IMG/VR virus record: IMGVR_UViG_3300040856_003829
Location: 1-64,000 of that record
DNA length: 64,000 bases
Source: a virus
Reading direction: 5' to 3' (one strand)
Shown: positions 19,840 to 44,126 of the stretch, piece by piece
Layout of the letters: each line of letters opens with the position of its first letter
Numbering within the stretch: position 1 is the stretch's first letter
Program-made: the position numbers and the translations under genes
Notes under the pieces: model-generated
Database searches by the model: none
What the model saw: the letters and a program-made list of their open reading frames with translations, nothing else
What the model was told of the DNA's origin: nothing

Positions 19840-20093
19840 TACCAGTTTTTAATAATATTAAGTACAATAAGTAAATTTGTGATGACTGCTTGTAAGATTA
19901 ATAAGGTTCGTATAAAAGCAACTTTATCACTAATCTTATTATCCTTTTCATTAGCCTTAGTACCTAAAGATTTTGCCCACAACTTCCAAAATCTTGTATA
20001 AGTGGTCCCTGCCGGATTCGAACCAGCGACCTTCTGGGTGTAAACCAGATGCTCTGAACCAACTGAGCTAAGAGACCTTTTATTTTTTTTCAT
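19839..20093 (-). CDS. Small phage membrane protein (WKLWAKSLG family); start uncertain, frame is open through tRNA-Val
   Basis: W.LWAKSLG.KA...D...D.VAFIRT plus a TM helix resembles a small protein I recall from marine T4-like phages. Confidence 0.5.
   Translation of the reverse strand: MKKNKRSLSSVGSEHLVYTQKVAGSNPAGTTYTRFWKLWAKSLGTKANEKDNKISDKVAFIRTLLILQAVITNLLIVLNIIKNW
20003..20077 (-). tRNA. tRNA-Val(TAC)
   Basis: GGTCTCT/AGGGACC acceptor, TCTGG-TTTACAC-CCAGA arm. Confidence 0.95.
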
Positions 20094-20268
20094 GCTCCAA
20101 TGTCAACAAAGAATCAATATAACGTTGATTCGATAAAAATACACTATCAGATAAAATTATTTCATCTTTAGTAAAATCTAATTGTTCACCAAGGATTTCA
20201 ATCTTAGTATCTTGATTATCACATGAGATCAAAAAAACAAAAGAACATACTGTAATAATTTTTTTCAT
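20080..20268 (-). CDS. Putative small lipoprotein
   Basis: Lipobox LIS-C. Confidence 0.55.
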   Translation of the reverse strand: MKKIITVCSFVFLISCDNQDTKIEILGEQLDFTKDEIILSDSVFLSNQRYIDSLLTLEHEKK

Positions 20269-20282
20269 TTCATAAAATTTAG

Positions 20283-20355
20283 TAACCCCGCTGGGATTCG
20301 AACCCAGGACCCTCTCATTAAAAGTGAGATGCTCTGCCAGCTGAGCTACGAGATC
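20283..20355 (-). tRNA. tRNA-Lys(TTT)
   Basis: TCTCA-CTTTTAA-TGAGA arm; acceptor GATCTCG/CGGGGTT with three G-U pairs. Confidence 0.9.
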
Positions 20356-20601
20356 AGATCCGCCTCCCTACAACACCTTACTCATATCGTAAGAATATTA
20401 TAGGGACACTTACATTCGTCCAATGTCAAGGAGTTTAGTTCTGTTCAGGGTGACTAAACGCACCCCACTATCTGACGGTAACTTACCAACATACCGACTC
20501 GTGCCGTATGTGTCTGAAATTACTCGTGAGATAGGTTTCCCATCCATGGGCGATTAGACCCTGATGGTAGTTACATGTTGACTAATCTCATGTAACAGCT
20601 T
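20356..20601 (-). ncRNA. Unassigned multi-hairpin structured RNA, about 245 nt, between tRNA-Tyr and tRNA-Lys
   Basis: No ORF of 60 aa or more; helices at 20570-20596, 20468-20534, 20433-20459 and 20365-20406; G-U pairs form only on the minus strand. Confidence 0.6.
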
Positions 20602-20602
20602 G

Positions 20603-20683
20603 TGGGGGTAGATGGACTCGAACCACCGATGTCAGAGACGGCTGATTTACAGTCAGCTGCAATAGCCACTATGCGATACCCCC
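20603..20683 (-). tRNA. tRNA-Tyr(GTA)
   Basis: GGGGGTA/TACCCCC acceptor, GCTGA-CTGTAAA-TCAGC arm, variable arm. Confidence 0.95.
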
Positions 20684-20689
20684 TAGAAA

Positions 20690-20774
20690 AGGTCAGACAA
20701 TACTGGAGACGGGCCCAGTGAACCGAATACACGTACTCGGAAGGGCCTTTTTACTCACAAGTAAAGTCTGACCT
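20690..20774 (-). ncRNA. Unassigned ~85-nt multi-stem junction RNA between tRNA-Thr and tRNA-Tyr
   Basis: 9-bp closing stem AGGTCAGAC/GTCTGACCT enclosing TTTACT/AGTAAA and GGCCC..CCGAGTA/TATTCGG..GGGCC arms. Confidence 0.55.
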
Positions 20775-20819
20775 GTTTTGGTATTGAACTTCAATACCGG
20801 CGTTTTCGAGTCGCCTATG

Positions 20820-20892
20820 AGCCACCAATAGGACTCGAACCTACGACCTGCTGATTACAAATCAGCTGCTCTACCAACTAAGCTATGGTGGC
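20820..20892 (-). tRNA. tRNA-Thr(TGT)
   Basis: GCCACCA/TGGTGGC acceptor, GCTGA-TTTGTAA-TCAGC arm. Confidence 0.95.
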
Positions 20893-20974
20893 ACACTAGT
20901 CTAAGACCTAACGTTGTGCTAATCCGGACCCATTTTAATACGATTGAGTCAACACGCTCACCTCACACGCAACT

Positions 20975-21217
20975 TTAAGATACGTTTGTAAGTCGATTTT
21001 CTAACTTATCCAGTCTTGAATCTATTGTTCTGTAAATTTCAGTGATCTCACCATCAATATTATGTCTAAATGAAGACATCTCATTATCGAAATTTGATGA
21101 ACTAAAATCAAAACTGGTTTGAAAATCTCTGAGTTCTTTCTTTAGTTTGAACACACCAACGACTGAGTATAAAAACCCAACCGATACTATACCCAAAACA
21201 AAATACAAAAATTCCAT
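20975..21217 (-). CDS. Membrane-anchored coiled-coil protein
   Basis: N-terminal TM; C-terminal YRTIDSRLDKLENRL. Confidence 0.7.
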   Translation of the reverse strand: MEFLYFVLGIVSVGFLYSVVGVFKLKKELRDFQTSFDFSSSNFDNEMSSFRHNIDGEITEIYRTIDSRLDKLENRLTNVS

Positions 21218-21242
21218 GTGTTTTAAATTTTAAGGTTTATAG

Positions 21243-21581
21243 ATGGAGAATTAGGTGAAGAGATAAGTCAGTCTCTTAAGTACGTCCAACTTTATTTTTT
21301 TCAGGTAACATACATCCGGAATACAAGAGAGTTGTTAACTCCGCATATTTCACGTTCATGTCCACTTCACAGGTGTTGGCAAACCTGATTGAAGTTCACT
21401 GAGTCAGACAGTAGACTTTTAGTGTCTCGTACAACTACATTTTTAGAATGCCCACAACAGAAAATAACGCTCGTTATCCCTGAAGCTACAATACTAAATA
21501 TGTATGCCTTATCCCCCTGTCCAAGGGATTATTCAGCAACACCCTCCCGTGCGTGATCAGCGCGGTGGGATTTACCTCCAT
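21243..21581 (-). ncRNA. Unassigned large structured RNA, about 340 nt, immediately 3' of tRNA-Ile(TAT)
   Basis: Terminal helix ATGGAG/CTCCAT; nested long-range helices GGGTG/CACCT and GGCATACAT/ATGTATGTT; several local hairpins; no ORF of 60 aa or more. Confidence 0.6.
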
Positions 21582-21584
21582 TTG

Positions 21585-21658
21585 TAGGGACGGAGGGACT
21601 TGAACCCCCGACCTTGACTATATAAGAGTCCTGCTCTAACCAACTGAGCTACATCCCC
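21585..21658 (-). tRNA. tRNA-Ile(TAT)
   Basis: GGGGATG/CGTCCCT acceptor, (G)GACT-CTTATAT-AGTC(A) arm, canonical D and T arms. Confidence 0.88.
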
Positions 21659-21713
21659 ATATTGATAACTTATTTACTTATGTAGTAAGTGCAAAACTCG
21701 AAAACCCATTACG

Positions 21714-21757
21714 TCAAAGAACTGTACAAATATAAGTCAAAATCTTTATTCTACAAA
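21714..21757 (-). promoter_or_regulatory. Bacteroidota sigma70-type promoter plus boxA-like element
   Basis: TTTG (21754-57)-N19-TATATTTG (21727-34), then AGTTCTTTGA. Confidence 0.8.
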
Positions 21758-21863
21758 AAATATGTAGAGGTTATTTCGTTACCAACGCAGCCATCATAGA
21801 TGTTACTGGATTATGGTTGGACTTCCATTTATCCGACTTCATCCCTAGTCGGTGGATGAGGTT

Positions 21864-22049
21864 TCAACCTCTCAAAATTTTGTTTTCATCATCCCATTTC
21901 TTTTTATTATTGTAGATTCTTTTTTGTACACCATCAAAGATCGATAGTAGTAACATACCAGTAATCAGAATCCCAATTACAAATGAAATGACTATGAATC
22001 CAACTTCGAAAAGACTACTGAAAAAGTCTGTTATATCAAGTAAAAACAT
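21864..22049 (-). CDS. Small single-TM protein
   Basis: Start moved to MFLLDIT (22049) to avoid the tRNA-Leu overlap. Confidence 0.55.
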   Translation of the reverse strand: MFLLDITDFFSSLFEVGFIVISFVIGILITGMLLLSIFDGVQKRIYNNKKKWDDENKILRG

Positions 22050-22063
22050 AATTTTGGTTTTAG

Positions 22064-22149
22064 TAGCCGGGGCGGGGCTCGAACCCGCACTCACCGTTCG
22101 GCGAAACAGATTTTAAGTCTGTCGTGTCTGCCAATTCCACCACCCGGCC
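22064..22149 (-). tRNA. tRNA-Leu(TAA)
   Basis: GGCCGGG acceptor, ACAGA-CTTAAAA-TCTGT arm, long variable arm. Confidence 0.95.
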
Positions 22150-22166
22150 ATACTCATATTCGTAAA

Positions 22167-22213
22167 TCAAAGAACACTCTGTAAAGATAAGACAACTTTT
22201 TTAAATCACCAAA
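22167..22213 (-). promoter_or_regulatory. Bacteroidota-type promoter plus boxA-like element
   Basis: TTTG (22210-13)-N20-TATCTTTA (22182-89), then GTTCTTTGA. Confidence 0.7.
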
Positions 22214-22224
22214 TCTTTTTTTTG

Positions 22225-22298
22225 TACACCCGATAGGATTCGAACCTATGACCGTCTGCTTAGAAGGCAGATGCTCTATCCAACTGAGCTACGGGTGC
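22225..22298 (-). tRNA. tRNA-Arg(TCT)
   Basis: GCACCCG/CGGGTGT acceptor, TCTGC-CTTCTAA-GCAGA arm. Confidence 0.95.
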
Positions 22299-22304
22299 AT
22301 GTTT

Positions 22305-22349
22305 TAAAGAACTCCAACAAAGATAAGTCAACTATTTCAAACTAACAAA
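22305..22349 (-). promoter_or_regulatory. Bacteroidota-type promoter plus boxA-like element
   Basis: TTTG (22346-49)-N20-TATCTTTG (22318-25), then AGTTCTTTAA. Confidence 0.8.
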
Positions 22350-22370
22350 TCTTTTTGTCTTTTTTTTTTG

Positions 22371-22439
22371 AGGTCAGAAGTGGATTCGAACCACTGTAAA
22401 AGGATTGCGATCCTTCACCTTCCATTCGGACACCTGACC
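22371..22439 (-). tRNA. tRNA-Cys-like gene with an aberrant 6-nt anticodon loop
   Basis: GGTCAGG/TCTGACC acceptor, U discriminator, intact T arm; anticodon arm AAGGA-TCGCAA-TCCTT. Confidence 0.7.
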
Positions 22440-22444
22440 AATAC

Positions 22445-22489
22445 TCAAAGAACGAGTACAAATATAAAACAAAAAAACCCTACTACAAA
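22445..22489 (-). promoter_or_regulatory. Bacteroidota-type promoter plus boxA-like element
   Basis: TTTG (22486-89)-N19-TATATTTG (22459-66), then GTTCTTTGA. Confidence 0.8.
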
Positions 22490-22522
22490 ACGTAACAGGG
22501 TTTTTTTAAAAAAAAAGTATGA

Positions 22523-23020
22523 TTACTGATTAACTACGTCGAATTGGTTATTATCAGCTCTTCTATTAATAGTAATAAAATAATCTGACAATTCTAAAAC
22601 ACCTGTAATTGATTCGTAAGTCCTACCATTCGTAAATCTAATCTTACTGATCGGTACAGTCTTGAATAAATTAACTTCACTTTCTCTAAGGTTGTACCAA
22701 GCGTTACCTTCACAATTAAACTTGTTCCAGGATGTTTTTGTAATCTTTTCACCGTTTTCGAAAAGAACAATCATTTCAACGTTTTCCACACATGATCCTA
22801 ATCCGACTATTTTAGCCATGATACCATCGAATACGGGATCAGGGGAGTTGTATTTCCATGCCGATTCTATTCTAAAACCAGCATTGTTTTCGATAAATAC
22901 TTGACCATCATCAGACCAATAAACTTTGTCTGACATTTCATCTACTATTTTAGTAAGTGTCTGTGAGTATGATGTTAATGCTATAAAAATACTAGCAATA
23001 ATTAGTGATAATTTTTTCAT
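22523..23020 (-). CDS. Exported hypothetical protein
   Basis: Signal peptide SYS|Q. Confidence 0.75.
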   Translation of the reverse strand: MKKLSLIIASIFIALTSYSQTLTKIVDEMSDKVYWSDDGQVFIENNAGFRIESAWKYNSPDPVFDGIMAKIVGLGSCVENVEMIVLFENGEKITKTSWNKFNCEGNAWYNLRESEVNLFKTVPISKIRFTNGRTYESITGVLELSDYFITINRRADNNQFDVVNQ

Positions 23021-43705: not shown

Positions 43706-43739
43706 AAAAAAAAGATCGACTTTTTCAAGTCGATCTTTT
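43706..43739 (-). terminator. Terminator downstream of tmRNA
   Basis: AAAAGATCGACTT-GAAA-AAGTCGATCTTTTTTTT on the minus strand. Confidence 0.85.
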
Positions 43740-43740
43740 G

Positions 43741-44126
43741 TGGAGATGCTGGGCCTCGAACCCAGGTCCTGATTGTCCCAAACAGAAAGGACTACACGTT
43801 TAGGTCATTATTGATTCTCAACAATCCGAAATAGGTGATTGAATTTTTACATCCTCCGTCACCAATAGATGTATGACTCAATTTAGGGTTTAGTCATTTC
43901 TCCACCACAACAACGGACTTCTGTTCATAGGTACATGTCCTGACCGACCCGCTGGATACGTCGCCTTAGGCTGCGTATACCTCTTCAGTACGGATCAAAC
44001 CGAGAGTCTGAAGTTTTGCGAAAGTTTCGCCATTTGTGTTTTGAAACCGTGGATTAAAGTGATAGGTAACCTCTCACTACGTGCCCTTTGTGACTGATGA
44101 CACCAGTCAAATCCATAATCATCCCC
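43741..44126 (-). ncRNA. ssrA: tmRNA
   Basis: 5' GGGGATG..GGATTTGAC; 3' GGTTCGAGGCCCAG-CATCTCCA with G3-U pair; tag frame 44031-43966 encodes (A)GETFAKLQTLGLIRTEEVYAA*. Confidence 0.93.

Follow-up and report, generated by a model that had tools for sequence, protein, structure and literature searches.

What are the GC-rich blocks that lie between the genes of a phage transfer RNA (tRNA) array? The question is raised by the tRNA operon at positions 20283-22489 of the virus record IMGVR_UViG_3300040856_003829, whose source is an uncultured marine T4-like jumbo phage. The window, as we call the whole stretch of DNA that was analysed (64,000 nucleotides, nt), is the first 64 kilobases (kb) of this 96-kb IMG/VR record, which has an estimated completeness of 32%, implying a full phage genome of roughly 300 kb. 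The array is composed of eight minus-strand tRNA genes, one of them aberrant, with GC-richer blocks (A to E) between them, and the coordinates of all features are given in Table 1. A preliminary description, made from the sequence alone, had taken these blocks for undescribed structured RNAs. For the two largest blocks, of about 340 and 245 nt, the proposal is supported by covariation: the D1 RNA (block D) and the A-type RNA (block A) are real, conserved structured RNAs encoded on the tRNA strand, and they represent families outside Rfam 15. The proposal fails for the block of about 105 nt, which is part of block E, as well as for the 82-nt block C, and the block of 85-93 nt, in block B, has too few diverged relatives.

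The window has an average GC content of 32.6%. The blocks are richer, as had been stated for them, with 43.9% in block A, 45.9% in block B, 45.1% in block C, 41.6% in block D and 43.5% in the GC-rich part of block E. Elsewhere in the cassette, the interleaved open reading frames (ORFs) have about 30% and the AT-rich promoter-like spacers about 24%; besides blocks A to E there are three AT-rich spacers of 72-83 nt. Regarding folding, z-scores were calculated for the minus strand against dinucleotide shuffles. Block A has a z-score of -3.27, and its plus strand has one of -1.70 and folds 16 kcal/mol more weakly. Block D has a z-score of -2.12 and a plus strand that is 11 kcal/mol weaker, and block B reaches -5.5 as a whole and -6.29 for its 93-nt core. 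The extensive folding on the tRNA strand that the preliminary description had reported thus holds for the blocks of about 340, 245 and 85 nt. It does not hold for the block of about 105 nt, the GC-rich part of block E (21772-21863), whose z-score of -0.49 (-0.75 for block E as a whole) is no better than chance; the value for block C is +0.58. The coincidence of block ends with tRNA ends is exact, and for blocks A and D it recurs in relatives. The first base of block D comes directly after tRNA-Ile, and at the other end a 25-nt AT-rich leader separates the block from an ORF of 80 amino acids (aa). Block A fills the whole interval between two tRNA genes, with its first base directly after tRNA-Tyr and its last base directly before tRNA-Lys.

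Relatives were collected through the 80-aa ORF, for which a metagenome scan confirmed 304 loci, and 80 of these were retrieved. In most of the loci examined the ORF sits in a tRNA array, usually between two tRNA genes. Most of the 80 retrieved loci are tRNA arrays in which one order recurs, Leu(UAA)-Arg(UCU)-Ile(UAU)-gap-Lys(UUU), and the gap that follows tRNA-Ile holds interchangeable ORF-free cassettes of 43-51% GC. These belong to several unrelated types, including D1 (about 350 nt), D2 (222-331 nt) and A-type (104-246 nt). The window carries D1 after tRNA-Ile and the A-type RNA after tRNA-Tyr. Comparison with these relatives establishes D1 and A as existing, conserved RNAs of the tRNA strand with a definite secondary structure and exact boundaries.

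D1 is a structured non-coding RNA (ncRNA) with multiple helices. The family was searched with a profile hidden Markov model of about 350 positions, and further copies in Ile-Lys slots came to light when IMG/VR was scanned with the invariant GUGAACUUCAAT...TGAAGTG motif. In an alignment of 14 sequences (A9), the window D1 is 50-63% identical to the other clades and alignable over its full length; blastn aligned only its first 53-85 nt with the D1 cassettes of relatives. RNAalifold predicted 66 pairs in 11 helices in this alignment. We found that 96.3% of the cells are paired, compared with 37-50% in slid controls, and that 36 of the 66 pairs are changed on both sides, compared with 5-11 in the controls. 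The covariation score is 0.49, against 0.08-0.14 in the slid controls, and none of 500 shuffles scored as high. Some G-U pairs are kept in all 14 sequences (for instance, columns 109-155), and the other strand would give C-A mismatches at these positions. The conserved, one-strand-specific G-U pairs and the compensatory changes therefore reveal selection on the structure of the D1 RNA.

The clearest domains of D1 are a hairpin with a palindromic loop, a long bulged arm and the GUGAACUUCAAU...UGAAGUG hairpin. The stem under the palindromic loop is fully exchanged between clades (GCG/CGC versus GGA/UCC) while the loop itself is kept, and the inner stem of the GUGAACUUCAAU/UGAAGUG hairpin covaries as well (UA/CG, GC/AU). 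The 5' and 3' ends of D1 pair in a closing stem, to which the GGAGGAAA at the 5' end belongs, covarying with the 3' end. This stem reads GGAGG/CCUCC in one part of the relatives, GAAGG/CCUUC in another, and in locus L174 it is an entirely different helix of 10 base pairs (bp; GGUUAGCUGU/ACAGCUAACC). Another helix, GGGUA/UACCC, becomes GAGUG/CACUC in a clade whose loci have no tRNA gene.

The motif scan of IMG/VR also revealed four divergent copies of D1 (L166, L168, L176 and L174) at tRNA-free loci, L176 being identical to L168 over the aligned stretch. As homologues occur at loci without a tRNA gene, D1 is an RNA gene in its own right, and tRNA punctuation is a way in which some phages express it and not a defining property. 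Nor is D1 the 5' leader of the 80-aa ORF, because relatives have tRNA-Lys directly after D1. It is an indel between near relatives, since L028, whose 80-aa ORF is 86% identical, has blocks A, B and E and lacks D1 and tRNA-Thr. The divergent copies at L168:3421-3795, L166:2180-2566 (minus strand) and L174:1225-1605 (minus strand) lie among small unannotated ORFs. The L168 contig has a family-A DNA polymerase about 3.5 kb downstream of D1 and a GC content of 48% around the RNA, and this DNA polymerase is the only Pfam family found among the neighbours of the tRNA-free copies. A scan of viral contigs with a 17-mer of the D1 hairpin gave 48 matches, of which three are real and the rest are in high-GC contigs.

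The A-type family has 11 copies in related arrays, all of them between tRNA genes. Its layout is a 5' module, a variable middle, which is missing from the short forms of 104-105 nt, and, in the long forms, a 3' module. The copies in L028 and L070 are 83-84% identical to that of the window, and the more distant members were reached with a covariance model. This model (R1) was built from six A-type copies outside the clade of the window, and it matches the window at 20535-20600 on the minus strand with 30.4 bits and an E-value of 5e-5, as well as L028 and L070; no further matches were found in 383 kb of related loci. In the 5' module, 97.6% of the cells are paired, and 10 of the 24 pairs are changed on both sides, compared with 0-1 in slid controls. 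The loops of hairpins 1 and 2 are complementary and show a compensatory double change, with GAUUAG/CUAAUC in the window where nine copies have GGUUAG/CUAACC, and judging from this complementarity they can pair as a kissing loop. The hairpins of the 3' module covary too (GCAUU/AAUGC, GCAGU/ACUGC and ACAUU/AAUGU; also CCCC/GGGG versus CUCC/GGAG), and the tail behind them, GCGGAUCU, adjoins tRNA-Lys in the window and in eight related loci. The block has only one sizeable ORF, and coding is excluded because the window and L028 differ within it by an 8-nt indel. A scan of viral contigs with the A-type loop pattern gave three matches, one of which is real.

Other cassettes of the same kind were observed in the related arrays. 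In L049:996-1488, ARAGORN identifies two Ile(UAU) genes, each followed by an A-type RNA (a short form of 104 nt, then a long form of 166 nt), and the pair looks like a tandem duplication of a unit of tRNA and RNA. D2 is composite: a module of about 215 nt stands alone in L041:124-345, a module of about 115 nt stands alone in the slot from Lys to Trp of L030:696-819, and the two are together in L036:2553-2883. As the D2 modules occur both singly and jointly in different slots, RNA modules are shuffled between inter-tRNA slots. More distant arrays have ORF-free gaps of 94-217 nt and 46-49% GC between tRNA genes (L012:2374-2543, L054:518-734, L093:899-1025 and L033:1799-1893), which match no family described here and may be additional RNA cassettes.

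Block B is a probable third structured ncRNA, judging from its fold. It consists of two small hairpins and a Y-shaped element that is closed by a perfect 9-bp stem. Homologues were found only in L027 and L028 and are about 96% identical. A coupled change (U to A and C to U) gives L028 an A-U pair in place of a U-C mismatch.

The preliminary description had been able to match the blocks to no RNA family, and this was upheld by the searches, since no Rfam 15 family reached threshold in the blocks or in their relatives. The region 19900-22600 of the window was scanned at E-values up to 10, together with 21 related loci, of which 16 were scanned at E-values up to 5 (best 150 of 180 matches) and five, which carry D1, at E-values up to 10. 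Only tRNAs and antisense artefacts were found besides a weak match to the manA RNA (RF01745). The latter has 19.5 bits in the window, compared with a threshold of 55.2, and was treated as chance; manA is found neither in the five D1-bearing loci nor among the best 150 of 180 matches of the other 16. Two further candidates were rejected at E-values up to 10: RNase P RNA, for which there is no Rfam match (P4 pseudoknot, CR-I, CR-V), and a tRNA (RF00005) pseudogene, since there is no tRNA-model match within blocks A to E. In blastn searches, the whole region matched GenBank phages in tRNAs only, and one D1 and one A-type relative matched none of 50,697 GenBank phage records. A 23-mer of D1 has three matches in 185,579 bacterial and archaeal species genomes, which are limited to the 23-mer, lie in genomes of 68-74% GC and were treated as chance. 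The rnaC and rnaD genes of phage T4 are themselves outside Rfam, and therefore a miss in Rfam alone does not prove novelty.

We consider it probable, though well short of assured, that D1, A and probably B are accessory ncRNA genes that ride the tRNA operon, are released by host tRNA processing and act in trans. The Cys-like, Arg, Leu and Ile genes are each preceded, at a distance of 20-69 nt, by a promoter-like module (TTG..CTTATnTTTG, then GTTCTTTGA); the four copies lie in the three AT-rich spacers and the 3' half of block E, a layout that suggests separate transcription starts for the first four genes of the array. The pattern TTG-N19-TAnnTTTG, which we take to be the form of Bacteroidota promoters, occurs seven times in the window, with 1.8 expected. 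Between tRNA-Ile and tRNA-Val there is no strict TAnnTTTG, and only two looser matches ending in TTTA are found, inside a 62-aa ORF. The promoter upstream of tRNA-Ile would drive one precursor, Ile-D1-ORF80-C-Thr-B-Tyr-A-Lys-ORF62-Val. Because D1 and A begin directly after a tRNA and A also ends directly before one, ordinary tRNA 3'-end processing and RNase P would be able to excise them precisely: the host 3'-end processing would make the 5' ends of D1 and A, and the RNase P cut at tRNA-Lys would make the 3' end of A. Once excised, the RNAs would serve in trans, as binding or scaffold RNAs, in the course of infection. Two parts of D1, its GUGAACUUCAAU/UGAAGUG element and its almost invariant palindromic loop, suggest specific contacts in trans, as does the kissing loop of A. 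These conserved loops and strands may point to a specific protein or RNA partner, and possibly to self-association through the UGAUCA loop. We infer the co-transcription, release, stability and trans action of D1 and A from sequence features, and the release in particular from the exact boundaries and the promoter layout.

Several observations weigh against this reading. The folding energy of D1 only modestly beats that of shuffles (z -2.1), two helices compete in its central part, and a search for pseudoknots among its non-helix columns established none at a depth of 14 sequences. The alignments are small (14 and 10 sequences from three or four clades), so that many of the double changes represent few evolutionary events, and the A-type alignment (A6, 10 sequences) was fitted to the model structure, which favours structure. 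D1 is dispensable, since it is missing from the close relative L028. Block B has in its favour its folding energy and one paired change. Blocks C and E, including the part of about 105 nt of the latter, were rejected as structured RNAs, with the z-scores given above and only near-identical relatives. The covariation among homologues that the preliminary description had put forward as a check is present in D1 and in the A-type RNA, and blocks C and E have no comparative support. Finally, sub-domains of D1 and A may already be included under anonymous names in a published IMG/VR catalogue, which lists 8,495 anonymous candidate RNAs 29-151 nt long (PMC10690425).

Some of the same observations bear on the main alternative, according to which the blocks are cis parts of the tRNA precursor, such as insulators, processing guides or nuclease-resistant spacers, with no life after excision. 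The A-type copies were found only between tRNA genes and adjoin both, with the tail GCGGAUCU fused to tRNA-Lys, as would be expected of such parts. Cassettes of differing type and length share the slot after tRNA-Ile, which would fit a generic role, and D1 is dispensable in L028. However, D1 homologues are found at tRNA-free loci, one of them on a contig that encodes a family-A DNA polymerase, and in the arrays themselves only 3-20 nt and no insulator separate many tRNA neighbours. The invariant loop and strand sequences, at an overall identity of 47-63%, point to specific recognition rather than to a generic spacer. We regard this explanation as unlikely, and as one that deserves real weight.

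A bolder version of the reading as trans-acting accessory RNAs receives little credence from us when its parts are taken jointly. D1 would be a new RNA class that forms an RNA-only multimer through its UGAUCA loop, in the manner of ROOL, GOLLD and OLE, or that is catalytic, and it would have spread horizontally among unrelated lineages of marine phages, T4-like and of other types. The A-type RNA, which has an intramolecular kissing loop of six base pairs and a D-loop-like sequence, would be a mimic of the tRNA elbow and engage either a host enzyme that binds tRNA or a defence that targets it. Both this mimicry and a dimerisation through UGAUCA are conjectural.

The position of D1 and A, immediately behind tRNA-Ile and tRNA-Tyr respectively, is also that of the theta ribozymes of gut phages, minimal ribozymes of the hepatitis delta virus (HDV) type located at tRNA ends within +/-5 nt (PMC10879173). 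One or more of the blocks might accordingly be self-cleaving ribozymes that shape tRNA ends, either divergent HDV-like or theta ribozymes or a new class, and both D1 and A have tertiary-looking features, namely a kissing loop and invariant single strands. We give this possibility a very slim chance. An HDV-like fold needs its first 6-7 nt (P1) to be paired just after a short P3, whereas the 5' bases of D1 pair about 330 nt away at its 3' end and the 5' bases of A precede a local hairpin. The theta ribozymes are nested double pseudoknots of minimal size, and at 246-341 nt D1 and A are far longer and differ in topology (PMC10879173). In addition, no Rfam ribozyme matched the window or the 21 related loci (best 150 of 180 matches for 16 of these).

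The chance that the blocks are Y-RNA-like partners of the Ro60 (TROVE) protein is slighter still. In D1 and B, as in the Y RNAs (YrlA, RF02553), a closing stem joins both ends, and Bacteroidota hosts can encode Ro60, the control genome of Bacteroides thetaiotaomicron being positive for TROVE. However, the 96-kb record and five related ones, all of them fragments 12-47% complete, yielded no TROVE gene. YrlA Y RNAs have a tRNA-like module, whereas the blocks show no T-arm or tRNA-like module at E-values up to 10, and the matches of the YrlA model, none of them above 16 bits, are confined to true tRNAs, with nothing in the blocks.

Least probable of all is an origin of the blocks from tRNA genes that have decayed or from mobile elements that left scars, so that their GC content would be inherited and they would have no present RNA function, an idea that would suit their tRNA-like GC content, the resemblance of the A-type hairpin 1 loop (AGUUGGUUAG) to a tRNA D-loop, the presence/absence polymorphism and shuffling of cassettes between slots, and the D1 closing stem, which would read as terminal inverted repeats in DNA, but that is largely refuted by compensatory changes in at least 36 D1 pairs and 10 A pairs, by the strand-specific G-U pairs, by the absence of a tRNA-model match in any block and by sequence blocks that are invariant between clades about 50% identical overall.

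Table 1. Features of the tRNA array and its surroundings, in window coordinates
Feature	Position	Strand	Remarks
tRNA-Val	20002-20077	minus	ARAGORN and Rfam; just outside 20283-22489
tRNA-Lys(UUU)	20282-20355	minus	ARAGORN and Rfam
A-type structured RNA (block A), 246 nt	20356-20601	minus	Exactly fills the interval from tRNA-Tyr to tRNA-Lys
A-type 3' module	20356-20436	minus	Two covarying hairpins, then tail GCGGAUCU adjoining tRNA-Lys
A-type 5' module, about 72 nt	20530-20601	minus	Hairpin 1, then nested hairpin 2; covariance model R1
Kissing-loop partners GAUUAG / CUAAUC	20582-20587 / 20552-20557	minus	Six-base complementarity of the loops of hairpins 1 and 2
tRNA-Tyr(GUA)	20602-20683	minus	ARAGORN and Rfam
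Block B	20684-20818	minus	Between tRNA-Thr and tRNA-Tyr; two small hairpins (20777-20818) and a 93-nt Y-shaped element (20684-20776)
tRNA-Thr(UGU)	20819-20892	minus	ARAGORN and Rfam
Block C, GC-richer leader of 82 nt	20893-20974	minus	Between the 80-aa ORF and tRNA-Thr
Gene of 80-aa small membrane/coiled-coil protein	20975-21217	minus	Conserved coding ORF within the array
D1 structured ncRNA (block D), about 341 nt, multi-helix	21243-21583	minus	End-to-end alignment with about 20 homologues; covariation
D1 hairpin domain, strands GUGAACUUCAAU and UGAAGUG around inner stem	21364-21402	minus	Strands invariant in 14 of 14 sequences
D1 hairpin loop CUGAUCA, with palindrome UGAUCA inside	21553-21559	minus	Heptamer in 13 of 14 sequences, UGAUCA in 14 of 14
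tRNA-Ile(UAU)	21584-21658	minus	ARAGORN and Rfam; relatives carry variable RNA cassettes after this slot
Block E, spacer	21659-21863	minus	Between the 61-aa ORF and tRNA-Ile; 3' part holds a promoter-like box
Promoter-like element TTG-N19-TATATTTG (TTG-N19-TAnnTTTG type)	21727-21756	minus	Upstream of tRNA-Ile; last before D1, B and A
Gene of 61-aa small hydrophobic protein	21864-22049	minus	Conserved in L027 and L028
tRNA-Leu(UAA)	22063-22149	minus	ARAGORN and Rfam
Promoter-like module	22182-22210 (box 22182-22189)	minus	Upstream of tRNA-Leu
tRNA-Arg(UCU)	22224-22298	minus	ARAGORN and Rfam
Promoter-like module	22318-22345 (box 22318-22325)	minus	Upstream of tRNA-Arg
Cys-GCA-like tRNA-like gene	22371-22439	minus	Rfam tRNA model, 44.7 bits; no ARAGORN call in the window
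Promoter-like module	22459-22488 (box 22459-22466)	minus	Upstream of the Cys-like gene
Terminator-like hairpin	22470-22508	minus	At the end of the upstream gene, ahead of the first array promoter

Regarding the array itself, the seven tRNA or tRNA-like genes announced for 20283-22489 were recovered by ARAGORN and Rfam, which agree on the Val, Lys, Tyr, Thr, Ile, Leu and Arg genes; the Cys-like gene is added by Rfam alone. The tRNA-Cys-like gene has a non-canonical anticodon loop of 6 or 8 nt (AUCGCAAU, with an extra C before GCA) and a D stem of 3 bp. It is kept in L028 (2107-2176), where ARAGORN reports a tRNA-??? with the four-base anticodon 'cgca'. Two possibilities for it are a tRNA-like RNA that does not decode and a tRNA of the frameshift type.

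Two conserved small ORFs of the cassette had been overlooked in the preliminary description. The first encodes the 80-aa protein, which has 35 homologues in the protein database with 22 invariant columns, a hydrophobic N-terminal segment and an invariant C-terminal YRTxDSRLDKLENRL motif. It belongs to no PHROG family, and its homologues have no precomputed Pfam domain in the protein database; the flanking small proteins matched no PHROG family either. The second encodes the 61-aa protein, whose likely start is the ATG at 22049, because the listed ORF 21864-22094 overlaps tRNA-Leu. Between tRNA-Lys and tRNA-Val there is also the 62-aa ORF (20080-20268, minus strand), which has a lipoprotein-like start (MKKIITVCSFVFLISC); several small ORFs near it have similar signal or lipobox-like N-termini, and its slot shows DNA similarity in L028, L041, L046 and L049.

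The genome encodes a T4-type portal (gp20), major capsid protein (gp23) and large terminase, together with Hsp70, ClpB and PPK2. The capsid protein has less than 45% identity to that of any GenBank phage, and the nearest are from Flavobacterium phages and uncultured phages. The host is probably a member of the Bacteroidota. A transfer-messenger RNA is located at 43738-44126 on the minus strand (99.3 bits), with the tag peptide GETFAKLQTLGLIRTEEVYAA.

D1 and A add two further unrelated, covariation-supported families, which suggests that accessory RNAs use the inter-tRNA slot as a general platform for expression. This follows from the shared genomic niche, from the interchangeable cassettes after tRNA-Ile(UAU) in a marine T4-like clade and from the presence of D1 at tRNA-free loci as well. 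With about 340 nt, D1 is compact, and its helices are sufficiently well defined for direct structural and biochemical work, in which the palindromic loop and the GUGAACUUCAAU/UGAAGUG element are targets for mutation. If the RNAs bind host tRNA-processing factors or tRNA-targeting defence factors, phage tRNA arrays would be linked to counter-defence.

Stable phage RNAs encoded beside tRNAs have been recognised for fifty years, since species 1 and 2 of T4, and GOLLD and ROOL are giant ornate phage RNAs that form cages. To our knowledge, none of these has an assigned function. Like D1 and A, the T4 genes rnaC (species 1) and rnaD (species 2) are encoded on the same strand as the tRNAs of a T4-type phage, inside their cluster and adjoining a tRNA gene; according to the T4 annotation, rnaD follows tRNA-Arg at a distance of 1 nt, and rnaC follows rnaD at 6 nt. 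In contrast, they are 119-139 nt long, compared with 246-341 nt for D1 and A, and the fold of rnaC has a canonical T-arm and an acceptor-like stem and is tRNA-like, whereas D1 and A give no tRNA-model signal. T4 is only distantly related to the source phage, and the A-type model R1 finds nothing on the T4 region. GOLLD (RF01998) and ROOL are, like D1, large multi-helix phage ncRNAs, often beside tRNA islands: both have been located near phage tRNA islands, and one GOLLD lies downstream of tRNA-Met in a marine metagenome (bioRxiv 10.1101/2024.12.08.627333). Neither has an Rfam match in the window and the five D1-bearing loci at E-values up to 10, or among the best 150 of 180 matches of the 16 other loci. 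They are roughly 600-800 nt long with many pseudoknotted domains, so that D1, with 341 nt, is about half their size, and A has 246 nt. Their RNA-only multimers are established by cryo-electron microscopy, whereas a D1 multimer is a conjecture from the palindromic loop. Phage tRNA clusters harbour enigmatic RNAs, and in this respect D1 and A are ordinary in kind and new in identity.

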